From positions 1-59,297 of the forward strand of contig JAIPED010000002.1 in NCBI GenBank assembly GCA_021737325.1: a DNA stretch of 59,297 nucleotides. Direction: 5' to 3'. Within the stretch, counting starts at the first letter, position 1. Every line of letters begins with the position of its first letter. Under the pieces are notes generated by a model. The model worked only from the letters and a program-made list of their open reading frames with translations. It had not been told where the DNA came from and ran no database searches. The translations under genes were made by a program, and so were the position numbers. Shown in pieces: positions 8,386-32,786 of the stretch. This DNA comes from Deltaproteobacteria bacterium. Its GTDB lineage: Bacteria; Desulfobacterota; Syntrophia; Syntrophales; JAIPED01.

Positions 8386-9969
8386 TTAAATAATTGTAAT
8401 ACTAGGGATATTTGCTTGCGTTTTTTGGTCGTGTTGTAGCGCGAGGGGGATACTATCTAAGAGATCGCTCGCAATCATTCCACTTTCGCCCTTGCTTTTG
8501 CTAGCAAGGTCCCCCGCCAATCCGTGGATATAAACGGCCTTGCGTAGCGCTTCCTCAAGGGAAAGCCCCGCACCATACATCCCCGCGATAATCCCCGTGA
8601 GAACATCGCCGGTTCCTGCCGTCGCCATTCCCGCATTTCCTGTAAGGTTGATGAATATGCGACCATCGGGAGAGGATATCAGAGAATGTGGGCCCTTCAG
8701 AACAATGTGTGCTCCCAACTCGCGGGATAACCTGCCAACCACGGCAACCCGATTAGCCTCCACCTCCGCAACGGTGATTCTGGCCAGACGGGCAATTTCT
8801 CCCGCATGGGGGGTGATTATTGTTGGTAGCGTTCTTTTAAGCGTGGGGGCGTTGGCAAGAGCGCTAATTGCATCGCCATCAATAACTAACGGGCATTTAA
8901 TTTTTGCGATCAGGGCCTGCGCCAACGCTTGTGCTTGCGGAGCCAATGACAGGCCAGGGCCAAGAATTACCATCCCTGCTCGTTCAGCAAGCGCCAGAAT
9001 GGTGGGGAGCTCTGTTAAACTTAAAGCGCCATCCTGCCCCTTGCAGGGGAAGACGACAATCTCGGGACACCGAAATGCCACTAGAGAAATGACATCAGGT
9101 ACGCTCGCCAAGGTGGCGTATCCCCCACCTGAGCGTAAAAAAGCAGCGCCCGCAAGATAGGCGGCACCGCGGTAATTGTTACTTCCGGCGACTATCAATG
9201 CGGTCCCGACGCTTTTTTTGTGTGCCTGTGGCAAACGGGGGGGGAGGGGAAGATATTCGTTGATGGAGATTTTTAACGCCTGGGGGTTTTGGTATGACAG
9301 CGGAAAAGAAATCCGCGAAAGATAAATTTTGCCACAGTGCTCAAAACCTGGGCTCAGCAGGAGCCCCAACTTGGGCAGCCCCAAGGTAACTGTAACATCG
9401 GCGCGAATCGCTTCCCCCATGATTGCTCCCGTGTTGCCGTTTATCCCCGACGGGATATCAACACTCACCACTAGGTTTTTTTTATAAGTTTTGGGAGGCG
9501 GAGTTTTGGCATCGTTTATCGCTCGGATGATTGCCGCAAAGATACCTTCCACGGGACGATCAATCCCCGTACCCAACAACGCATCCACAACAATATCGAC
9601 ATCCTTTAGCGATTCTTGGATATCGGCGGAGGAGAGGGCATGGAGCAGGGGGATTGCGACAATATTGGAGAGCGCTCTGAGGTTAGTTTTTGCGGCACCC
9701 GTGCATTTTGCGGGATTGCCAACAATTAAAACGCGCACCTTGACCCCCAGGCTGTGGAGTTGCCGCGCTATCACCAAGCCATCACCGCCATTGTTACCTG
9801 TTGAACAGACAACAAGTGTTTGGCTGGTGCGAAGATCGGGTTTAATGGCTAGGAGTAACCGTGCTACGGCTATTCCGGCATTTTCCATTAAAACTTCTTC
9901 GGGGATGCCAAGCTCGTTAATTGCGGCGTAATCCAGTGCCTGCATTTCCGCGACGCTAACAACCTTCAT
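8386..9969 (-). CDS. nnr: Bifunctional NAD(P)H-hydrate epimerase / ADP-dependent dehydratase
   Basis: YjeF_N motif TGNNGGDG and C-terminal kinase-fold motifs GPGLS and GTGDVLTG; 527 aa. Confidence 0.88.
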   Translation of the reverse strand: MKVVSVAEMQALDYAAINELGIPEEVLMENAGIAVARLLLAIKPDLRTSQTLVVCSTGNNGGDGLVIARQLHSLGVKVRVLIVGNPAKCTGAAKTNLRALSNIVAIPLLHALSSADIQESLKDVDIVVDALLGTGIDRPVEGIFAAIIRAINDAKTPPPKTYKKNLVVSVDIPSGINGNTGAIMGEAIRADVTVTLGLPKLGLLLSPGFEHCGKIYLSRISFPLSYQNPQALKISINEYLPLPPRLPQAHKKSVGTALIVAGSNNYRGAAYLAGAAFLRSGGGYATLASVPDVISLVAFRCPEIVVFPCKGQDGALSLTELPTILALAERAGMVILGPGLSLAPQAQALAQALIAKIKCPLVIDGDAISALANAPTLKRTLPTIITPHAGEIARLARITVAEVEANRVAVVGRLSRELGAHIVLKGPHSLISSPDGRIFINLTGNAGMATAGTGDVLTGIIAGMYGAGLSLEEALRKAVYIHGLAGDLASKSKGESGMIASDLLDSIPLALQHDQKTQANIPSITII

Positions 9970-18372: not shown

Positions 18373-19797
18373 GTGGGAAATAATGTTTCAGCAATTTTGC
18401 AGAGTCTTCCCAAGATGGATGATTTATTAGGCGGTGTTAAGGATGAGCTTGGTTCTTTGCTTTCCATCGCGGTTATTAAGCGCCTCTGTCAGCAGGTGGT
18501 TAGCAAAAAGCGTGAAGAGCTACTCGCGGAGATGACCGCAGCAGGTTCCCCCACCATCCTCAAATCTAAAGAAGAGCTCCGCGAAGCGATCATTGGGGAA
18601 GTCATGTTTCTTGCCACATCACTGATAAATCCTCGCCTCAAACGAGTTATTAACGCCACGGGGGTTGTGCTACATACCAACCTGGGACGCTCCCCCTTGA
18701 GCGCCCGTGCCCTTTGTGGGGTTGTGGCGAGTGCCATGGGATATTCCAATCTAGAGTTTTCTCTAGAAGATGGCAAACGGGGGTTGCGCTATGACAATCT
18801 CAGAGAATTGATTTGCTCCATAACGGGGGCCGAAGATGTAGTGGTTGTGAACAATAATGCCGCGGCAGTTATGCTCATTTTGGATACCATAGCGTTTGGC
18901 AGGGAAGTTATTGTGTCTCGTGGAGAGCTGGTGGAAATAGGCGGTGGTTTTCGCGTTCCTGATGTGATGAAAAAAAGCGGCGCCTTGCTCAAGGAAGTGG
19001 GCACCACCAACCGTACCCACATTGATGATTATGCACGGGCGCTAACATCCAGCACGGGGCTGTTGCTTAAGGTGCACGCCAGCAATTTTAAGATGGTGGG
19101 TTTTTGCAATGATACTCCGCTATCAGAATTGGTTGCTTTGGGCAGGGAGCATCGCATTCCTGTTGCCTACGATGTCGGTAGCGGGAGTCTTGTCGATCTA
19201 TCACGGTACGGGATAGAAGGGGAACCGATGCTGGCCGAGATATTGGCTTCGGGGGTGGATGTTATTTCCATCAGTGGTGATAAGCTTCTCGGCGGGCCAC
19301 AGGCTGGCATCATTTTGGGCAAGCGGGAAGTTATCCAAACGATCGCCCAAAACCCGCTCAACCGTGCTTTGCGGGTGGACAAGCTCACCCTTGCGGCGTT
19401 GGAAGGAACACTCATTGATTATCTCCAAGACGAAGAGGTTGTTTGTCAAAGTATCTATCCTTTGCGTTACATTTCTCGGACTCCTGCATTTCTCAAAAAA
19501 GAGGCACGCATTCTGACGAAGACGATAAAAAAAAGCTGCGGCAATAAATTTTCCTTGGAAGAGTTAGCGGGTAAATCCTTTGCCGGTGGTGGTGCTCTTC
19601 CTGGCTACGAGCTTGATTCCATCCTTGTTGCTCTAGAAAATGCAACATTAACTGCGGAGCAAATAGCCACAAAATTACGAATGGCGGAAGTTCCCGTTAT
19701 CGTTAGAGTGGCCAATGATAAGGTTCTTTTCGACCTCAGAACGCTGGAGCAGGATGACTACGCAGAAATCGCCTTGGCGTTATGCGAGTTGTTGTAG
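18373..19797 (+). CDS. selA: L-seryl-tRNA(Sec) selenium transferase
   Basis: HTNLGRS and the PLP-lysine motif ISGDKLLGGPQAGII; about 470 aa. Confidence 0.9.
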   Translation: MGNNVSAILQSLPKMDDLLGGVKDELGSLLSIAVIKRLCQQVVSKKREELLAEMTAAGSPTILKSKEELREAIIGEVMFLATSLINPRLKRVINATGVVLHTNLGRSPLSARALCGVVASAMGYSNLEFSLEDGKRGLRYDNLRELICSITGAEDVVVVNNNAAAVMLILDTIAFGREVIVSRGELVEIGGGFRVPDVMKKSGALLKEVGTTNRTHIDDYARALTSSTGLLLKVHASNFKMVGFCNDTPLSELVALGREHRIPVAYDVGSGSLVDLSRYGIEGEPMLAEILASGVDVISISGDKLLGGPQAGIILGKREVIQTIAQNPLNRALRVDKLTLAALEGTLIDYLQDEEVVCQSIYPLRYISRTPAFLKKEARILTKTIKKSCGNKFSLEELAGKSFAGGGALPGYELDSILVALENATLTAEQIATKLRMAEVPVIVRVANDKVLFDLRTLEQDDYAEIALALCELL

Positions 19798-20759
19798 CTG
19801 AAATGGATCGCGATTTTCGTATTGTTGCTACAGTTGGTGATGATGGGGAGCGGGTGGATGTCTTTTTGGCGAAACATCTCCCCCAATTCACCCGTTCCCG
19901 TATCAAAACGCTTAGCCTGACAGGTGCGTTGAAGGTCTCTGGCAAAACGGCAAGGGCCTCTTGCCGTTTGAGTGCGGGTGATGTTGTTGAGTTGAGCGCG
20001 CCAGAGCCTGTTGCCAGCAATATCAAGCCTGTAAAAATGCCGCTACGAATCATTTTTGAGGATGACGCGATAATCGTCATTGATAAACCTGTAGGTGTGG
20101 TAACCCATCCAGCCTGTGGGCACTACGACGATACGCTTATCAATGGGGTGTTGTTCCACAGTCCAACCCTTTCTGGCGTGGGAGGAGTGCTACGCCCAGG
20201 AGTTGTGCATCGCTTGGATAAAAACACTTCGGGAATCATCGTTTTTGCCAAAAGCGACCGGGCACATCAGATGTTGGCAATGCAGTTCAAGGAACGCCAG
20301 GTGGAAAAGCGCTACCTGTGTTTAGTCTTTGGAAATCCTTCGAACGATGTGGGCGAAATTGATTTTCCCATCGGTCGCCATCCCCGTGAACGACAGCGAA
20401 TGAGCGCCAGTGGCAAGAGGGCAAAAGGAGCACTCACCATCTGGAAGGTGCTGGAAAGGCTTCCTTTTTGTACGCTTTTGGAAGTGGAGATCAAAACGGG
20501 AAGAACCCATCAAATAAGGGTGCATTTGAGTGCAAGCGGTTATCCGGTTATCGGCGATGCCGTTTATGGAAAGCCCAATTTTAACGCTGTTGCCAATACA
20601 GCCATCCGTGAGGCCTTGCGAGCGTTTCCCCGTCAGGCGCTTCATTCACACAGCCTTTCGTTTGTGCATCCGATAAGTTGTGAGCGGGTGGCATTTTCTT
20701 CGCCGCTTCCCGCTGATATTGCCTCATTGAGAAAATTCCTCTGGGAGCAAAAAAGATGA
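19782..20759 (+). CDS. rluD: RluA-family 23S rRNA pseudouridine synthase (RluD-like)
   Basis: S4-like N-terminus, catalytic HRLDKNTSG, and RTHQIRVH. The start may be MDRDF at 19803. Confidence 0.85.
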   Translation: MRVVVAEMDRDFRIVATVGDDGERVDVFLAKHLPQFTRSRIKTLSLTGALKVSGKTARASCRLSAGDVVELSAPEPVASNIKPVKMPLRIIFEDDAIIVIDKPVGVVTHPACGHYDDTLINGVLFHSPTLSGVGGVLRPGVVHRLDKNTSGIIVFAKSDRAHQMLAMQFKERQVEKRYLCLVFGNPSNDVGEIDFPIGRHPRERQRMSASGKRAKGALTIWKVLERLPFCTLLEVEIKTGRTHQIRVHLSASGYPVIGDAVYGKPNFNAVANTAIREALRAFPRQALHSHSLSFVHPISCERVAFSSPLPADIASLRKFLWEQKR

Positions 20760-21611: not shown

Positions 21612-22043
21612 CTACTCTCCGTGTTCTGAAAATTGATGACAGCGGGGACAGCGCCCGTAGATGAAGACTTTTACGCTCTCGACATAAAAATCCCCCCCGA
21701 GCGTAAAAAGGGGAGCATCTGTATCAAGGGGGAGGTCGGTAACCTCCCCACATTGGATACAACAAAAATGTGCGTGTTCTGCCATATCTCCATCGTAGCG
21801 GCATTGCTTTTTTTGGATGTTAATTTCCTGAACCAACCCATGTTCCTTTAGGGTATTCAAGGTATTATACACTGTTGCGCGAGAAAGACTCTCATCCTCT
21901 CTTGCCAGTTGAGCATAAACTTTGTCTGCGGTAGGATGAGCGGTTGTTTCCCTAAGATACCTCAAGATCGCCACCCGCTGACAGGATGCTTTTAACCCGT
22001 GGGCTCTAAGAGTTTCCTCCACGCTGGTATTGCAATGCCTCAT
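21612..22043 (-). CDS. perR: Fur-family regulator, PerR-like
   Basis: Winged-helix N-terminus, HFCCIQCG and RCPRCH zinc motifs. It is co-oriented directly downstream of rubrerythrin. Confidence 0.8.
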   Translation of the reverse strand: MRHCNTSVEETLRAHGLKASCQRVAILRYLRETTAHPTADKVYAQLAREDESLSRATVYNTLNTLKEHGLVQEINIQKKQCRYDGDMAEHAHFCCIQCGEVTDLPLDTDAPLFTLGGDFYVESVKVFIYGRCPRCHQFSEHGE

Positions 22044-22054
22044 GGTTAATAGCT

Positions 22055-22603
22055 CTAATTCTTAAAAAATCTCTTCAAAAGCCCCTGAAAGGCAGCTCCG
22101 TGCCTTGCTTCATCCTTGCACATCTCATGAACAGTATCATGAATGGCGTCATAACCGAGCTGTTTTGCTTTGGCGGCGAGGTCTAACTTATGTTGACAGG
22201 CTCCGTGTTCCGCATCTACCCGTAATTCAAGATTCTTTTTGGAGCTAGGAAAGACCACTTCGCCCAAAAGCTCGGCAAATTTTGCCGCATGTTCCGCTTC
22301 TTCAAATGCTATTCGCTTGTATGCCTCGGCAATTTCTGGGTAACCTTCTCTATCCGCTTGTCGGCTCATCGCAAGGTACATGCCTACCTCGGTACACTCT
22401 CCCATGAAGTTATCGCGCAGATCCTGGACAACATGGGGATCCAGACCATTTGCCACGCCAATTTTATGTTCCGCAGCCCAAGCTTTGTCCCCTGCAACAA
22501 CCTCGGAAAACTTTTCTTGAGGCGCCTTGCACTGGGGGCAATTAACGGGGGCAACCTCACCAACATGTCCATAACCACAAAGACCGCACACAAATTTTTT
22601 CAT
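22055..22603 (-). CDS. rbr: Rubrerythrin with an N-terminal rubredoxin-like domain (reverse rubrerythrin arrangement)
   Basis: N-terminal CGLCGY...CPQCKAP, followed by ferritin-like ExxH motifs (EEAEHA, DEARH). Confidence 0.85.
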
Positions 22604-25519: not shown

Positions 25520-25831
25520 TCATTTCCTGACGGTTTGGTTAACAAACTGTGGCGGTTTTTCAACGGTCAATTGGGCTCGTTTCAACGCAGCGATGATCTT
25601 TTGGGGGCCAGTTTTAGCATCATCAAATTTCACCACAACCTTGCCAATATCAGGAAACTCCACTGAGTGAATACCTTTGTCTTCAGACAAGATAAAACTT
25701 ATCTTGCGTGCAACCCCTCAGGTCGTACACTCTGTAACGCGCAATTCCATGGTTTGTTCCTTCGCAAAAAGGAGAACGGGAAAAAGCAGAAGCAAAAACG
25801 CCACCACCAGTTTTTTATGAAGACCTCGCAT
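25520..25831 (-). CDS. Periplasmic HMA-domain (MerP/CopZ-like) metallochaperone with selenocysteine: C-T-T-U metal site
   Basis: ATG at 25831 lies 6 nt after GGGAGG. The signal peptide is MRGLHKKLVVAFLLLLFPVLLFA. ELRVTECTT is followed by an in-frame TGA (25720..25718), and the same frame continues GVARKISFILSEDKGIHSVEFPDIGKVVVKFDDAKTGPQKIIAALKRAQLTV to a stop at 25520. A SECIS-like hairpin lies 11 nt after the TGA. Confidence 0.8.
25688..25706 (-). promoter_or_regulatory. SECIS-like stem-loop for the HMA selenoprotein
   Basis: Minus strand CAAGATAA-GTT-TTATCTTG, a perfect 8-bp stem that starts exactly 11 nt 3' of the UGA. Confidence 0.65.
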
Positions 25832-25940
25832 TTCAAACCTCCCAGCGGAAAATAAAATAATAAATCTTCTGCGAACAAGCACTACCACGGAAGTCGTAAC
25901 ATTTCTCAATAAAAATGTGCAAGTCTTCGTAGGGTTATGG

Positions 25941-26918
25941 CTATCGAGCTATCCGAATTCGCGGATCTGCATAGGCGTAAGCAATATCGGCAAGAAGATT
26001 TCCTAGTAGCGTAAGCAATGAGCCGATGACGAGAATGCCCATAATTGTGGGGTAGTCGCGTGCCATTACCGCAATGTAGAAGAGTTGTCCCATTCCAGGG
26101 AGGGCAAATACCGTTTCTAAGATGACACTGCCGCCAATAAGACCCGGCACGGAGAGCCCCAGTATTGTAATAACGGGAAGAAGCGCATTGCGCAACGCAT
26201 GTTTGAAAATGATGGAATTTTCGCTAATCCCCTTTGACCTTGCTACGGTGATGTAATCTTGCCGAATAACTTCCAGCATATTGGAACGCATATATCTTGA
26301 TAATCCCGCCAAACCGCCGAAGACCGCAACGAAAAGGGGTAGAATCAGATGCTTGCCGAAGTCCAGAATGCTTGCCAGGGGTGAAAGGTACTCGTGGTTT
26401 AGCGAACGAAGTCCTGAAATTGGTAACCATCCCAATTCTACGCCAAAAAACCTCATTAAAATTAGCGCTAACCAGAATGAGGGGACCGCCAAACCGAGGA
26501 ATAAAAGCACGCTAACGGTATTATCAAAGATAGAGTTTTGCTTGATTGCGGCGGTAACGCCAAGGGGCACCGCGATAATGAAAATTACGACCATCGCGCC
26601 AAGATTAAGGGCGATGGTAACGGGAAGCCGCTCCGCAATTTTATCAATGACCGGTCTTCTGTCCGTTGAAAAAGATTTTCCAAAGTCCAGTGTAATAGCT
26701 CTTTGTAGCCAGAGCCAGTATTGTTCATAAAGTGGCTTATCAAGGCCATACATCACCGTCATCCTTGCTTGCGCTTCTGCCGATGATCTGGGGTTGAGCA
26801 TTGTTTCCATATCCGTTGGCTTTCCTGGTGCCAAATGCATGACACCAAAGCAGATAATGGATATTCCCAAAAGCAAGGGAAAGATCATTACCAGTCTCTT
26901 CAAGAGATATTTTTTCAT
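25941..26918 (-). CDS. ABC transporter permease, DppB/OppB (peptide/nickel) family, with no partner genes nearby
   Basis: N-terminus MKKYLLKRLVMIFPLLLGISIICFGVMHLAPG and EAA-loop region ARSKGISENSIIFKHALRNALLP; 325 aa. Confidence 0.85.
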   Translation of the reverse strand: MKKYLLKRLVMIFPLLLGISIICFGVMHLAPGKPTDMETMLNPRSSAEAQARMTVMYGLDKPLYEQYWLWLQRAITLDFGKSFSTDRRPVIDKIAERLPVTIALNLGAMVVIFIIAVPLGVTAAIKQNSIFDNTVSVLLFLGLAVPSFWLALILMRFFGVELGWLPISGLRSLNHEYLSPLASILDFGKHLILPLFVAVFGGLAGLSRYMRSNMLEVIRQDYITVARSKGISENSIIFKHALRNALLPVITILGLSVPGLIGGSVILETVFALPGMGQLFYIAVMARDYPTIMGILVIGSLLTLLGNLLADIAYAYADPRIRIAR

Positions 26919-26944: not shown

Positions 26945-29158
26945 TTAAAAGCGTTTATATCGTATCAGGAGCGAATTGGAAACAACGCTGAAAGAAGAGA
27001 AGCTCATCGCAATTGCCGCCAACATGGGGTTAAGCAAGAATCCAGTGAAGGGATAGAGTACCCCCGCTGCGATGGGTATTCCCAGTATATTATAACAAAA
27101 TGCCCAAAACAAATTTTGGCGAATTTTGCGGCGAATGTAAGCAGAAATATCTATTGCCACGGCTACATCTGTTATCTTGCTACGCATCAGAACAATGTCG
27201 CCAGTTTCAACGGCGATGTCCGTTCCCTCAGCCAGAGCGATGCCCAAATTCGCCTGCGCTAGTGCGGGCGCATCGTTAATCCCGTCACCAACGAATGCCA
27301 CTCTTAATCCCTTGGCTTGTAATTCCTTAACCAAAATAGCCTTGTTTGCGGGGAGCGTTTCGGCAAAGACTTCATCAATGCCAACCAAGCGAGCTATGCC
27401 TTGGGCGATTTCCTGCTTATCGCCGCTAACCATTGCTATCCGTTTACCCATTTGATGCAAATTGCCTATCGCTTCTTTTGCTTCTGCTCTGATTTCATCG
27501 CGTATTCCGAAGATGCCTAATAAAGCACCGTCGCATGCGAGATAAAGAGGGCTCTCTCCCGCACACAATAACGCTTCAACAGTGCCACGGGATTCGAGAG
27601 GAATGCTGCAGGAATTAGCCAGCAATAGCCGTTCGTTGCCCAGTAGCACCGTCTTTTCTTCACTATCCGTTCCGGTAATACCCATCCCTTCCCACTCGCG
27701 AAGCGTTGTAAGACTGGGCGAAACAAATCCCTTATCACCAGCGTAGGTAGCAATGGCCATCGCGAAGGGGTGTTTTGAGGTTGCGGCGAGGGAAAGAGCC
27801 TTCTCAGTAATATGCTTATCTGTAAGCCCGCCAAGGGGTAAAACTCGCGCCACGATTGGAATTCCCGTGGTTATCGTTCCTGTTTTATCAAACAAAACAA
27901 TGTCAATCTGCCGTGCGGTCTCCAAGACCGACACATTTTTTATTAAAATTCCCCGCTCGGAAGCCCTTCCCACCCCAACCATAATTGCTGTGGGCGTTGC
28001 CAGACCAAGAGAACAAGGGCAGGCAATGATTAAAACGGAGACCATTGTTGTAAGCGCAAACGGGAAATCGTATCCCGCAAACAGCCAGAAGGCAAAAACA
28101 CTCAGGGCGAGAGAGATGATGATGGGAACGAAGTAGAAGGAAACTTTGTCGGCCAAAACCTGTATGGGGGCCTTGGAGGCGAGGGCGTTATCGACAATTT
28201 TTATGATTCCTGCAAGCACGGTTTCCGCCCCTACCCGCCTTACGGCGAAGCGAAACGGACTTGTTTTATTGATCGTGCCGCCAACCACGGACTCTCCAAC
28301 GGCTTTGGCGATAGGAAGACTTTCTCCCGAAATCGCGCTCTCGTCAACCGTGGTTTGCCCTTCAATGACCACACCATCAATCGGAATTTTTTCCCCTGGA
28401 CGCACCAACAAGATATCTCCATAGCGGAGCTCCGCAACTGGTACCTCCACGAAGCCATCTCCCCGCAGGAGAGTGGCTGTTTTGGGTTGCAGCGCAAGAA
28501 GGTTCCTAATTGCTTCTCCCGCCCGACCTTTAGTTTTGGCTTCTAAAAATTTGCCCAAGGAAATGAAGACTAAAATGATACCCGCACTTTCAAAATATAC
28601 ATGCGCATTCTGATAGGCGGCGGGATGTACCCAGATAAAAATGCCCATAGTTAGACTATAAAGATAAGCGGCTACGGTGCCGATTTCCACGAGGCTATCC
28701 ATGTTGGGATTTCTGCTTAAGAGCTTTTTAAAGCCCGAAATATAGAGGTTCGCGTTAACCAACATGATGGCCGTGGTTAGCAATAGTTGCAGGATGATAT
28801 TGGTGCGTAAGGTAACGGAAGGCAAAGGCAGGTGGAGCATTTCGCCCATCGCCAGGTAAAATAACGGAGCTCCCAGGAGGAGGGAAAGGAGAAAGCGCTG
28901 TTTTAGATAGCCTATTTCATCTTCACTGTGCGTAGTGGCTGTATCTGTCGCATCGCCAACATCAAAGCCCTTTCCTCTGATAATTTTAGCGATTCCGTCA
29001 AAAGTAATTAAGTTACTGTCAAATTCAACGGTTGCCTTAGCGGATGCAAGGTTTATCCTCGCCGTTAGAACGCCCTGTGTTTGGTTTAGCGCCGCTTCCA
29101 AGCGTGCTGAACAGGAGGCTCAGGTCATTCCCCGTATGATTATTTCTCTCTTATCCAT
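26945..29158 (-). CDS. copA: Cu(I)/Ag(I)-type P1B heavy-metal ATPase with selenocysteine in the N-terminal HMA motif (GMT-U-ASC)
   Basis: [12 protein letters not shown] is followed by an in-frame TGA (29122..29120), then [17 protein letters not shown] continuing into the 718-aa track ORF. Motifs present: [22 protein letters not shown]-x4-P and MSFSS. An alternative start is ATG 29170. A SECIS-like hairpin lies 11 nt after the TGA. Confidence 0.85.
29088..29108 (-). promoter_or_regulatory. SECIS-like stem-loop for copA
   Basis: Minus strand AGCACGC-UUGGAA-GCGGCGCU gives a 5-bp stem with a bulged A. It begins 11 nt 3' of the UGA. Confidence 0.5.
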
Positions 29159-29211: not shown

Positions 29212-29237
29212 CTACGGAGAAGTTTCCTTCTCCGTAG
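29212..29237. terminator. Perfect 26-nt palindrome CTACGGAGAAG-TTTC-CTTCTCCGTAG between the hcp stop and the copA start
   Basis: 11-bp perfect stem with a 4-nt loop. On the minus strand it is followed by CTGCTGTTGCTTTTTC. It is either the hcp terminator or an operator for copA. Confidence 0.5.
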
Positions 29238-29252
29238 TACCTTAAGAGCAAG

Positions 29253-30887
29253 CTACTTGGTTGCCAGAATGTCGTTGAGATCTTTCTCGGCGCTGGTGAT
29301 AGGCTGTATCGCGAAGTTTTCCACCAACACATTCAGGATGTTGGGGGTAATAAAGGCCGGGAGGGAGGGTCCCAAACGGATGTTCTTTATTCCCAAATGA
29401 AGCAGGGTAAGCAACACGGCAACCGCCTTTTGTTCGTACCAAGAAATTATCAAGGATAGGGGGAGCTCATTTACTCCCACACCAAAGGCTTGCGAAAGAG
29501 CCAATGCGATGCGTATTGCCGAATATGAATCGTTGCATTGTCCAACATCCAGCAGACGGGGTATTTCGCCGATTTTCCCCAGATTTTTATCAAAGAACTT
29601 GAACTTACCACATCCCAGGGTGAGAATAATGGTGTCCGGCGGGGTTTTTTCAACAAACTCACTGAAGTAGTTACGCGAAGATTTTGCCCCATCGCAACCG
29701 CCAACCAGGAAGAAATGCTTTATCTGTCCCGATTTCACCATGTCGATAATGGTGCCTGCAATGGATAAAACCGTGTTGTGCCCAAAACCCGTTAGCACCG
29801 TGCCAGCATCTGTGTCCTCGCTAAATCCAGGGAGCTCATTGGCCCGCTTAATCACGGCGGAAAAATCGTTTTCTACGATATGGGGAATGTTGGGAAAACC
29901 CACACAACCGCAGGTAAAGATGTTATCTCTGTAAGATTCTTCAGGTTTTTGCAGACAGTTCGTCGTCATTAAAATGGCACCGGGAAAGTGGGCGAATTCT
30001 TTTTGCTGGTTTTGCCATGCGGTTCCGTAGTGGCCATAAAAATGCGAATACTTTTTTAGCTCAGGATACGCGTGGGTTGGCAACATCTCCCCATGGGTGT
30101 AGATGGTGATTCCCTTGCCTGCAGTTTGCTTTAGCAACTCCGCCAGGTCCTTAAGATCGTGCCCGGAAACCAAAATGGCCTTTCCTTTTTTCGCGCCCAG
30201 AGGAACAGAGGTGATAACGGGATTGCCGTAGGCGGATGTGTTTCCCGTATCCAACAATTCCATGGCCTTGAGGTTAATCTCTCCACAGCGCAAAACCAAG
30301 GTCAGAAGCTCGCCAACCCCAATATCTTTGCGTTCCGTTGCGCAAAGTGCCTCAAAAATGAAATTATAGATGCCTTCATCCTCTTTGCCCAAGATTCTTG
30401 CGTGGTTAGCATACGCGGCAACTCCCTTTAAACCGTAGATTAACAACTCCCGCAAGGATACTAAGTCAGGCTCTAACAAAGGATTATCCTTTATGCCAAA
30501 GCGAGAGCCTTCCGCGACAAGCTCGGAGAGTGTTGCCTTGGCGGTTATCGTAATGGTGCCATTGCCGTAGCTTTTGTCCCCCGCGCTTAAGATTGCTTTT
30601 TCCATTTCTTCGCGGAACTTCGCGGATCGTTTGTTGAAAGCAACAAAACGGTTAGCGTCAAAATTGACATTCGTCAGCGTGGAAAAAAGTGCTTCCAAGA
30701 CAAAGGCCTGCAATTCTGGGGAAGGCTTTATGTGCCATTGGCGGCCAGTAACGACGGCTTCCGACAGTGTTTTCAACGATTTGATTAACAGATCCTGTAG
30801 CGCCGCGATATCTGGCTCTTTACCGCACACTCCAATTTTTGTGCACCCTTGCCCTTTTGCTGTTTGCTCGCATTGATAACAAAACAT
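29253..30887 (-). CDS. hcp: Hydroxylamine reductase / hybrid-cluster protein
   Basis: N-terminal MFCYQCEQTAKGQGCTKIGVCGK; about 544 aa. The track ORF starts 8 codons earlier, at a GTG. Confidence 0.92.
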   Translation of the reverse strand: MFCYQCEQTAKGQGCTKIGVCGKEPDIAALQDLLIKSLKTLSEAVVTGRQWHIKPSPELQAFVLEALFSTLTNVNFDANRFVAFNKRSAKFREEMEKAILSAGDKSYGNGTITITAKATLSELVAEGSRFGIKDNPLLEPDLVSLRELLIYGLKGVAAYANHARILGKEDEGIYNFIFEALCATERKDIGVGELLTLVLRCGEINLKAMELLDTGNTSAYGNPVITSVPLGAKKGKAILVSGHDLKDLAELLKQTAGKGITIYTHGEMLPTHAYPELKKYSHFYGHYGTAWQNQQKEFAHFPGAILMTTNCLQKPEESYRDNIFTCGCVGFPNIPHIVENDFSAVIKRANELPGFSEDTDAGTVLTGFGHNTVLSIAGTIIDMVKSGQIKHFFLVGGCDGAKSSRNYFSEFVEKTPPDTIILTLGCGKFKFFDKNLGKIGEIPRLLDVGQCNDSYSAIRIALALSQAFGVGVNELPLSLIISWYEQKAVAVLLTLLHLGIKNIRLGPSLPAFITPNILNVLVENFAIQPITSAEKDLNDILATK

Positions 30888-30952
30888 CTTTTTCCATTCC
30901 TCCCTTTTCACTTTGATGACATGGGCTTTAATGCTTGCGGACCAAAGGTTCC

Positions 30953-30966
30953 TTGATTTATGTCAA
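30953..30966. promoter_or_regulatory. CRP/FNR-type box TTGAT-TTAT-GTCAA in the hcp/hcpR divergent region
   Basis: 9 of 10 match to TTGAT-N4-ATCAA, centred about 73 nt upstream of the hcp ATG. Confidence 0.55.
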
Positions 30967-31001
30967 ATGATACTCTTTTTAAAAAGTGGGAGGTCTTAAG
31001 C

Positions 31002-31670
31002 ATGGAAAACGAGCAGGCTCTTCGGGCACTAACGCTTTTTGAAGATTTATCTGATGAGATGTTGGTGGAGGTTGATTCCATCACCATCAGGAAAAAGGTG
31101 TGCAAGGGCGAGAGCATTTTTTTCGCAGGACAGGAGGGCGATCGTTTTTACGGCATTGCTAATGGTAGCGTAAAAATATTTAAACTCTCCGCCGAAGGCA
31201 ACGAACAGATCTTGCATATTTTTGGCGAAGGCGAGATTTTTGCGGAGGTTGCCGTTTTTGCGGGTAGCACCTTTCCCGCCAACGCTCGGGCTTTGGAGGC
31301 AAGCGAATTGCTCATCTTCAGGCGCGATCTGTTCATCGCTTTGCTATCAAAGAACGCGGATCTTGCACTAAAAATGCTTGGCATTCTTTCGGCACGACTG
31401 CGCATAATGGCGTTTCTTGTTGAGAGCATTTCCCTTAAAAGCGTCTCTGGGAGGGTGTCATCTTATTTGCTCGGTGTTGATCATAAAGAACGGAACTGGT
31501 TTCCTCTTACCGCTAGCAAGGGAGATTTGGCACGGATGTTGGGTACAATTCCTGAGACATTTTCGCGGAGCCTGCGACGCTTGCAAGAGCAGGGCATTAT
31601 TGAAGTTGCGGGGAAAAAAGTGCGGATAGTTGATTATAATGCCCTGGGGGAGATAGCGAAAATAGAATAA
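31002..31670 (+). CDS. hcpR: Crp/Fnr-family transcriptional regulator (HcpR-like)
   Basis: cNMP-binding-like N-domain and a C-terminal HTH (GDLARMLGTIPETFSRSLRRLQEQG). The start is taken at MENEQ, 8 nt after GGGAGG. Confidence 0.8.
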   Translation: MENEQALRALTLFEDLSDEMLVEVDSITIRKKVCKGESIFFAGQEGDRFYGIANGSVKIFKLSAEGNEQILHIFGEGEIFAEVAVFAGSTFPANARALEASELLIFRRDLFIALLSKNADLALKMLGILSARLRIMAFLVESISLKSVSGRVSSYLLGVDHKERNWFPLTASKGDLARMLGTIPETFSRSLRRLQEQGIIEVAGKKVRIVDYNALGEIAKIE

Positions 31671-31796: not shown

Positions 31797-32786
31797 ATGA
31801 AGAAAATATACGATGCTGTTGTGGTAGGTGCTGGTCCTGGGGGGTTAACGGCCGCCCTGTATACGGCCCGAGCAGGTATGGAAACACTTGTTATTGAGGG
31901 AGAATCTAGCACTTCACAAGTAACGATTACCGACATGATTGAAAACTACCCTGGTTTTCCCGAGGGGATAAGTGGGTATGATTTGTTGGATAGGTTCAAA
32001 AAGCAGGTGCTTGCCCTTGGTGTAAAAGTAGTTGTGCAAGATGTGCGAGCGCTAGTTCGTGCCAAGCAAGAGGGACAGGATATCTGGGAAATTGCTGTTG
32101 CCGAAGGTGAGCCGTTTTTAGCCCATACGGTGATAGCCGCGACGGGAACATCCTGGCGGCGTTTGAATGTGGCTGGCGAGGAAGAATTTATTGGTAGGGG
32201 GGTTTCTTTTTGTGCGACCTGCGATGGTCCTCTGTATCGTGCGAAGGAAGTGATTGTCGTTGGCGGCGGATCTGCCGCCGTCCAAGAGGCGCTCTTTCTG
32301 ACCAACTTCGCGAATAAAGTTACCCTGGTGCATCGTCGAGCGGAGCTTCGTGCCGACAAAATTCTGCAGCAAAGGGCATTCGATAACGGCAAGATAGATT
32401 TTGTGTGGAACGCGGTCATCGAAGAAATTCAAGGGGAAAAAACGGTAAGCGGTGTTATTGTTAAGGATGTTCATAGCGGTGAGTTACGCCGCATTGCCAC
32501 CAACGGTATTTTTGTTTTTATCGGCTCTGTTCCCAACACGGAAATGTTTAAGAATGTTCTCCAACGCTCCGCCAGTGGTGCTCTTGTTGTTGATCGCAAT
32601 ATGGCAACATCGGCGGCGGGAGTTTTTGCCTGCGGTGATTGTGTAGACAAAGATTTCCGCCAGGTTGTTAACGCTTGTGGCGAAGGTGCCGTCGCTGCAA
32701 ATGCGGCGTACCATTTTGCCGATGGTCTATCGCGCTCAATTCCTCAAAAGGCTAGGCACACATGTGTGCAAGGAAGGGGAAAATGA
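31797..32786 (+). CDS. trxB: Thioredoxin-disulfide reductase
   Basis: GAGPGG, redox-active CATCDG and a second Rossmann motif VVGGGSAAVQEA. Confidence 0.88.
   Translation: MKKIYDAVVVGAGPGGLTAALYTARAGMETLVIEGESSTSQVTITDMIENYPGFPEGISGYDLLDRFKKQVLALGVKVVVQDVRALVRAKQEGQDIWEIAVAEGEPFLAHTVIAATGTSWRRLNVAGEEEFIGRGVSFCATCDGPLYRAKEVIVVGGGSAAVQEALFLTNFANKVTLVHRRAELRADKILQQRAFDNGKIDFVWNAVIEEIQGEKTVSGVIVKDVHSGELRRIATNGIFVFIGSVPNTEMFKNVLQRSASGALVVDRNMATSAAGVFACGDCVDKDFRQVVNACGEGAVAANAAYHFADGLSRSIPQKARHTCVQGRGK

Follow-up and report, generated by a model that had tools for sequence, protein, structure and literature searches.

The minus-strand locus 25831..25520 of a 59,297-nucleotide stretch of bacterial DNA (contig JAIPED010000002.1, assigned to a Deltaproteobacteria bacterium; hereafter the window) raises a simple question: does the in-frame TGA within it end a short reading frame, or does it encode a selenocysteine (Sec, written U) in a longer protein, and what would such a protein do? 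All coordinates are those of the whole window and refer to the minus-strand gene unless a sign says otherwise; "window protein" means the product of 25831..25520. The reading that we favor, with a probability of roughly 0.75, is that the locus encodes an exported MerP-like selenoprotein with a C-x-x-U motif, in which Cys35 and Sec38 would together bind a soft metal in the periplasm. Metal binding itself, and the choice of metal, we infer.

One gene across an in-frame TGA, with a conserved hairpin downstream

Locus 25831..25520 is a single real gene that gene finders cut in two at the TGA (Table 1). The frame that opens at ATG 25831 reads MRGLHKKLVVAFLLLLFPVLLFAKEQTMELRVTECTT up to this codon at 25720..25718, ending in ELRVTE-C-T-T. 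An initial annotation, made from the sequence alone, had pointed to this ATG and its good ribosome-binding site, to the ELRVTECTT that precedes the TGA, and to 65 more codons in the same frame, and the sequence agrees on each point: GGGAGG stands at 25843..25838, and positions 25717..25523 are all sense codons. The precursor, taken across the TGA, has 103 residues and the mature part about 80, with a C terminus a few residues longer than that of the relatives described below. It had also been proposed that ORF (open reading frame) calling missed the gene, and the public protein set indeed holds only a 47-amino-acid (aa) C-terminal fragment of it (P0001).

Relatives were sought by an exhaustive phmmer search with the C-terminal 65 residues as the query, followed by further searches and locus look-ups. 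The full-length protein with U replaced by C retrieved no relatives from a word-indexed protein search or from genome contigs, because family members are miscalled and too divergent to share 5-mers. Three phmmer matches were useful: the gene's own fragment P0001, a protein with multiple HMA domains (E = 4e-5), and the 87-aa protein P0004, which aligns along the whole mature protein and shows W at the column of the window TGA; the underlying P0004 DNA reads TGA there, not TGG. About ten distinct family sequences were obtained (L081, L085-L097, and L103), on independent metagenome contigs and on one NCBI contig from a metagenome-assembled genome, and their identity to the window protein is 33-36%. 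The TGA column is common to all full-length relatives (L081, L085-L091, L093-L097, and L103) and spans at least four divergent lineages. Every one of these relatives has a signal peptide followed by (E)xxVQLN(I/V)PGC-x-x-TGA-G-x-x-x-RI(G/S)(S/A)IL and then the rest of the domain in frame; rather than ending at the TGA, they keep it and run on, and the ratio of nonsynonymous to synonymous substitution rates (dN/dS) between members is 0.1-0.4 downstream of it, which indicates purifying selection.

This family is systematically misannotated in public data, because callers either wrote Trp for the TGA or called the C-terminal half only. The public entries P0004, P0007, P0008, and P0012 (loci L081, L085, L086, and L103) carry W for the TGA, an artifact of translation in the style of genetic code 4/25 on short contigs, and the public gene calls P0001, P0009, and P0010 consist of the C-terminal fragment alone. 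With every member truncated or Trp-translated, the family exposes a practical annotation problem; the Trp-for-TGA artifact is also what brought it to light, and the same artifact could lead to further hidden selenoproteins.

A perfect 8-bp hairpin 11 nt past the TGA had been noted as well, and its coordinates (25706..25688) agree with ours: CAAGAUAA (25706..25699), a GUU loop, and UUAUCUUG (25695..25688), starting exactly 11 nt after the TGA. The distance from UGA to loop is 19 nt, and the minimum free energy (MFE) is -10.6 kcal/mol for 48 nt. A published model of the bacterial Sec insertion sequence (bSECIS) specifies a loop of 3-9 nt, an upper stem of 4-16 bp, G in the first two loop positions, a UGA-to-loop distance of 16-37 nt, and an MFE of -7.5 kcal/mol or lower (PMC13188914). 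The window hairpin (GUU, 8 bp, 19 nt, -10.6 kcal/mol) lies within all of these limits, as would be expected of a SECIS element. Counting both strands, the window has 1652 TGA trinucleotides, and just 4 of them (0.24%) precede a perfect hairpin of at least 8 bp with SECIS geometry; a chance origin is therefore unlikely. Rfam gave no match at the hairpin.

The hairpin proved to be present in every TGA-carrying relative, as GAGGAUAG-GUK-CUAUCCUC versus CAAGAUAA-GUU-UUAUCUUG in the window, with the 11-nt spacing kept in all. Across an 11-sequence alignment, 97.5% of the pair cells are paired, compared with 38-56% after the 3' partner has been shifted by 1-3 columns. Compensatory changes, altering both sides of a pair, distinguish the window from the other clade at 3 of the 8 stem pairs. 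In one case, 5'-arm changes are compensated by a synonymous Leu change (TTG -> CTC), a sign that selection acts on the hairpin RNA rather than on the protein.

Given the conserved frame and hairpin, the TGA is read through under selection, and the residue inserted at it is, we infer, Sec. The source organism seems to have the Sec trait, to judge from a selA gene and a second selenoprotein gene, copA, in the window. Of the in-frame TGAs that separate long open stretches in the window, only two are plausible Sec codons, the one at 25720..25718 and another in copA at 29122..29120. TGA is not a general sense codon here, because it ends 14 of the 48 large ORFs in the window, including this gene.

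Fold, predicted export, and proposed role

The part of the protein beyond the TGA had been described as HMA-like, and several lines of comparison bear this out. Besides the phmmer matches to the multi-HMA protein and to a relative, the family profile matched solved structures of MerP (1osd, E = 1.3e-6; 1afi, E = 3e-6) and, more weakly, CopA and CopZ, and hhalign against canonical MerPs from the same metagenome scan gave a probability of 97.9% (E = 5e-13, 75 columns), with the signal peptides aligned too. In both hmmsearch and hhalign, the C-x-x-U falls on the C-x-x-C of MerP, so that the Sec column of the relatives and the window protein corresponds to the second Cys. With U as C, the window protein matched Pfam HMA (PF00403) at 16.1 bits (E = 0.015) and the MerP model TIGR02052 at 20.7 bits (E = 4e-4). 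Four of six aligned family members matched Pfam HMA at E <=1 (best 0.0017), and all six matched TIGR02052 (best 4.7e-10), every one of them under the cut-off; matches to CopZ models were weak (E of 0.024-0.09). An AlphaFold2 model of the relative P0007, with a predicted local distance difference test (pLDDT) score >90 in the mature domain, has the beta-alpha-beta-beta-alpha-beta order, and it places the Cys in the loop between beta1 and alpha1 and the Sec position where alpha1 begins. The top Foldseek match of this model in the PDB was MerP (target template modeling [TM] score 0.79), followed by HMA domains, with top target TM scores of 0.7-0.84.

In the label "MerP/CopZ-like" given in the initial annotation, MerP is the better fit of the two, although the protein scores under the MerP equivalog cut-off and comes without a mer operon. 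As far as its sequence goes, the window protein is a divergent MerP-like branch of the HMA fold and not MerP proper, since it falls below both the MerP and the Pfam HMA cut-offs and lacks both the GMT motif and a mer operon.

In the N terminus (MRGLHKKLVVAFLLLLFPVLLFA/KEQ), 3 K/R residues precede a hydrophobic core of 12 residues, whose mean Kyte-Doolittle value is 3.1. In the family alignment, M1 is invariant, the n-, h-, and c-region features and the Ala at position -1 are kept across members, and Ala23 lines up with the AxA-like "VYA/AE" site of the relatives; cleavage after Ala23 is likely. Neither a twin-arginine motif nor a lipobox occurs in the N terminus of the window protein. The host is a diderm, because the window encodes BamA, Skp, LpxA/B/D/K, and MsbA, and the window protein is predicted to be exported to the periplasm.

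In the mechanism that we propose, a signal peptide of the secretory (Sec) type, residues 1-23, would send the protein to the periplasm of a diderm, Syntrophales-like bacterium. The UGA at 25720..25718 would be decoded as selenocysteine by SelB and tRNA-Sec, directed by the hairpin within the coding sequence 11 nt downstream. The resulting Cys35-x-x-Sec38 pair would lie at the beta1/alpha1 junction, the place of the metal-binding cysteines of MerP and CopZ, and a soft metal ion could be held tightly there through an S-metal-Se bridge. The candidate ion would be Cu(I)/Ag(I), because the gene two places upstream in this run of minus-strand genes encodes a Sec-containing CopA, or Hg(II), because of the MerP ancestry. 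The protein might be a metal sink, or a chaperone that either receives its metal from an exporter or delivers metal to one.

Among known systems, MerP (TIGR02052; 1afi and 1osd), the periplasmic Hg(II)-binding protein of mer operons, is the best match by sequence, profile, and structure. Like MerP, the present protein has one HMA domain of some 72-80 residues behind a signal peptide, here predicted to be cleavable, with two metal-ligand positions, putative here, at the beta1/alpha1 junction and a V-x-V-T-F-D-D-x-K-T motif in beta3. The two differ in the second ligand, which is Cys in MerP and presumably Sec here, and in the loop, which reads G-M-T-C-x-x-C in MerP and P-G-C-x-x-U-G here; furthermore, alpha1 is two residues longer here, the score is far under the equivalog cut-off, and merR, merT, and merA are not nearby in the window or in relatives. 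The UxxC CopA selenoproteins likewise have Sec within the CxxC of an HMA domain, and one of them (GMT-U-ASC) is encoded two genes upstream. There, however, the first Cys is replaced rather than the second, the domain is cytoplasmic and fused to a pump rather than a stand-alone, predicted exported protein, and Cys forms are common, whereas no Cys-form orthologue was found here. CopZ and Atx1 have the same fold and ligand geometry, and the copA neighbor hints at a copper link, but they are cytoplasmic, have no signal peptide, and match more weakly than MerP. Two NCBIfam models, NF041115 ("UxxU metal-binding (seleno)protein") and NF045683 ("MerT/CopZ fusion-like heavy metal transport selenoprotein"), also describe HMA-related predicted selenoproteins of heavy-metal handling; they matched family members only weakly (E of 0.0016 and 0.12, respectively), far under their cut-offs, and differ by a UxxU motif in the one case and a MerT fusion in the other. 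Neither model captures the present family. NCBIfam release 20 contains no model dedicated to it.

Sec in HMA-type metal sites is thus already known, from UxxC CopA, the UxxU proteins of NF041115, and the MerT/CopZ fusion. A review table of 2026 includes UxxC CopA, MerT-like, and UxxU HMA-like families but not an exported CxxU MerP-like one (PMC13188914), and the Haft catalogue of prokaryotic selenoproteins reports none in mercury-resistance families (bioRxiv 10.1101/2022.07.06.499078). The "MerP" selenoprotein of GOS 2008 was considered as a precedent and rejected, as it is an unrelated 33-residue fragment (GTUCQSG). We found no literature description of an exported MerP-like C-x-x-U family. 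The use of Sec is almost confined to redox catalysis, and to our knowledge there are few clear examples of a small, noncytoplasmic binding protein that uses Sec as a metal ligand. A MerP-like family of about 80 residues with Sec apparently fixed would offer a compact, tractable model for what a selenolate adds to Cu(I)/Hg(II) binding.

No Cys-form orthologue of the family was found among the relatives recovered. P0011 (L082-L084, L101) was considered as one and rejected: its DNA homology begins only at the 3' arm of the hairpin, and the part upstream is unrelated and broken by two TGAs. P0011 is therefore a remnant cut short at its 5' end, without signal peptide, first Cys, TGA, or 5' hairpin arm. 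The identical truncated copy (L082 5266..5481, L083, and L084/L101) occurs in three data sources, adjoins an upstream gene for a 1423-aa glycogen synthase/phosphorylase fusion, and is probably a decaying remnant. Another copy, L092 1893..2174, retains both TGA and hairpin, but Gly replaces its first Cys (PGGAS-TGA) and no signal peptide can be recognized upstream; it may be damaged.

A bolder proposal, which we consider possible but doubtful, is that the MerP-like family is strictly Sec, with no Cys member, that the selenolate is indispensable and serves binding rather than catalysis, and that the Sec-containing CopA and the MerP-like protein form a metal relay in this organism. If true, this relay could export Cu(I)/Ag(I) and sequester it in the periplasm, or capture Hg(II) or methylmercury, in anaerobic Syntrophales-type bacteria, and selenium status would be tied directly to soft-metal tolerance.

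Competing explanations

The TGA could instead be decoded as Trp or Gly, as in genetic codes 4/25, or be passed by leaky near-cognate read-through, and four relatives are in fact stored publicly with W at the TGA column. The stored W translates TGA rather than TGG, however, and the gene's own stop is again TGA, as is that of more than a dozen other large ORFs in the window; the codon falls on a metal-ligand Cys column of MerP, in the classical Cys/Sec pairing, and it comes with a conserved SECIS-type hairpin and with selA. We regard such decoding as very improbable. Slightly lower still do we place the notion that the locus is a pseudogene created by a Cys-to-stop change (TGT/TGC -> TGA), or two unrelated short ORFs that happen to share a frame. 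Gene finders do split the locus, the first searches with U as C returned no relatives, and a 5'-truncated remnant of the family is found elsewhere (L082-L084). Yet the TGA column is shared by some ten different sequences, which come from at least four divergent lineages; both halves are kept, and in one frame, with dN/dS <0.4 downstream; the downstream half has no start codon or ribosome-binding site of its own, and the upstream half provides beta1, which the fold needs.

The main rival accepts a real exported selenoprotein on an HMA scaffold and takes the C-x-x-U for a redox center with a reversible selenylsulfide, not a metal site, making the protein a periplasmic thiol/selenol oxidoreductase or a peroxide/disulfide reductant; we judge this unlikely, if far from negligible. 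Most bacterial CxxU/UxxC selenoproteins are thought to be redox proteins (PMC13188914). The Sec position at the N terminus of alpha1 in the P0007 model has a geometry like that of redox CxxC sites, MerP can form a Cys-Cys disulfide (PDB 1osd, "oxidized MerP"), the relatives lack a conserved metal-gene context, and stress genes lie nearby in the window (Hcp, rubrerythrin, a Fur-family regulator, and a thioredoxin-reductase-like protein). On the other hand, all detectable homology is to metal-binding HMA proteins, MerP best, and the window gene comes after that of a Sec-containing Cu-type ATPase on the same strand. We know of no redox enzyme on this fold.

Several points weigh against an exported, metal-binding MerP-like selenoprotein as well. 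Sec is more usual at redox sites than at pure binding sites. The two profile scores of the window protein do not reach their thresholds, 16.1 bits against a PF00403 gathering score of 24.8 and 20.7 bits against a MerP equivalog cut-off of 92.55; the first Cys follows TE in the window (TE-C) and PG in relatives (PG-C) instead of the canonical G-M-T, and alpha1 is longer; and the three-dimensional model is that of the relative P0007, with Trp written at the Sec position, not that of the window protein. No mer genes occur among the annotated window ORFs or in the flanks of L092, L094, and L096. The flanks of L092, L094, and L096/97 consist of housekeeping or toxin-antitoxin-type genes without metal genes; because these informative flanks hold none, the link to copA is not a family feature, and the adjacency is seen in the window only. 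The window does not contain selB, selC, or selD, and its sole tRNA genes are two for tRNA-Ser. All three double changes in the hairpin stem separate the window lineage from the rest, and they amount to one phylogenetic contrast, not three independent events.

Features and neighboring genes

Table 1. Coordinates of the MerP-like gene, its parts, and the other genes discussed
Feature	Position	Strand	Basis or remark
Shine-Dalgarno sequence GGGAGG	25838..25843	-	Sequence reading; 6 nt upstream of ATG
Start codon ATG	25831..25829	-	Sequence reading
Start codon and predicted Sec-type signal peptide, residues 1-23, MRGLHKKLVVAFLLLLFPVLLFA	25763..25831	-	Sequence features
N-terminal mature part KEQTMELRVTECTT, beta1 and putative metal-binding loop	25721..25762	-	Equivalent beta1/loop in the P0007 AlphaFold2 model
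Cys35 codon, first position of C-x-x-U	25729..25727	-	Translation
In-frame TGA, residue 38, second position of C-x-x-U	25718..25720	-	Same column in all full-length relatives
SECIS-like hairpin	25688..25706	-	8-bp stem CAAGAUAA/UUAUCUUG, loop GUU, 11-nt spacer
C-terminal 65 sense codons GVARKISFILSEDKGIHSVEFPDIGKVVVKFDDAKTGPQKIIAALKRAQLTVEKPPQFVNQTVRK, alpha1-beta2-beta3-alpha2-beta4 of the HMA fold	25523..25717	-	Homology; model of relative
True gene stop, again TGA	25520..25522	-	Sequence reading
ABC-transporter permease (BPD_transp_1, DppB/OppB type), between copA and the MerP-like gene	25941..26918	-	Profile match
P1B-type ATPase CopA, GMT-U-ASC, two genes upstream	26945..29158	-	HMA, E = 1.2e-13 (U as C)
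selA (L-seryl-tRNA(Sec) selenium transferase)	18373..19797	+	PF03841, E = 2.1e-144; about 6 kb away

The minus-strand gene order is hcp, copA (with Sec), the ATP-binding cassette (ABC) permease, and the MerP-like gene. The initial annotation had stated that CopA has the first Cys of its CxxC replaced, and GMT-U-ASC is indeed read at the TGA at 29122..29120. ORF callers start copA at TTG 29101, which costs it 19 N-terminal residues. Some 19 nt past the copA TGA is a small hairpin whose loop reads UGGA. The gene belongs to a known selenoprotein family, "Cation-transporting ATPase E1-E2, UxxC." In translation it has the CPC motif and the signatures of transmembrane segments 7 and 8 (TM7/TM8), which we take to mark Cu(I)/Ag(I) pumps of the P1B-1 type.

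The permease gene starts 26 nt past the copA stop and ends 109 nt before the start of the MerP-like gene, and in the latter gap a simple promoter scan of the minus strand detected nothing resembling a sigma-70 site; cotranscription of the MerP-like gene, the permease, and copA is plausible. A perfect 11-bp hairpin, CTACGGAGAAG-GAAA-CTTCTCCGTAG (29237..29212, minus strand), lies directly past the hcp stop and is followed by a T-rich run. This terminator-like hairpin suggests that copA, the permease, and the MerP-like gene are transcribed as a unit of their own, without hcp.

The permease appears to be an orphan, and no partner subunits (second permease, ATPase, or binding protein) are encoded nearby in the window. 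Its homologues in Syntrophales are 65-70% identical, and one of them, at L005, has a second permease directly downstream (8985..9824). The 80 mostly Syntrophales loci inspected around relatives of the permease contain no HMA-like ORF, nor do they have the copA, hcp, or patatin of the window; no gene neighboring the window permease recurs beside its Syntrophales homologues. Exact-match look-ups returned no record for either the window permease or P0001, a plasmid collection held no DNA similar to the window, and there are no hgc genes among the annotated window ORFs.

Stress genes at 21612..22603 (minus strand), 29253..31670, and 31797..32786 give the window an oxidative/nitrosative-type neighborhood. 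The set comprises a Fur-family (PerR-like) regulator, rubrerythrin, the hybrid-cluster protein (Hcp), a Crp/Fnr regulator, and a thioredoxin-reductase-like flavoprotein, and this neighborhood could bear on a redox role of the selenoprotein.

Two further hairpins were seen on the plus strand. One, of 10 bp and G+C-rich, is followed by TTTG and lies at 19950..19985, shortly past the selA stop and within the 5' end of a mechanically called pseudouridine-synthase ORF (19782..20759); the true start of the pseudouridine-synthase gene is probably further downstream than 19782. The other, at 25530..25559, is terminator-like, with a T-run, and falls within the last codons of the MerP-like ORF on the opposite strand, about 60 nt past the stop (25469) of the convergent patatin gene.

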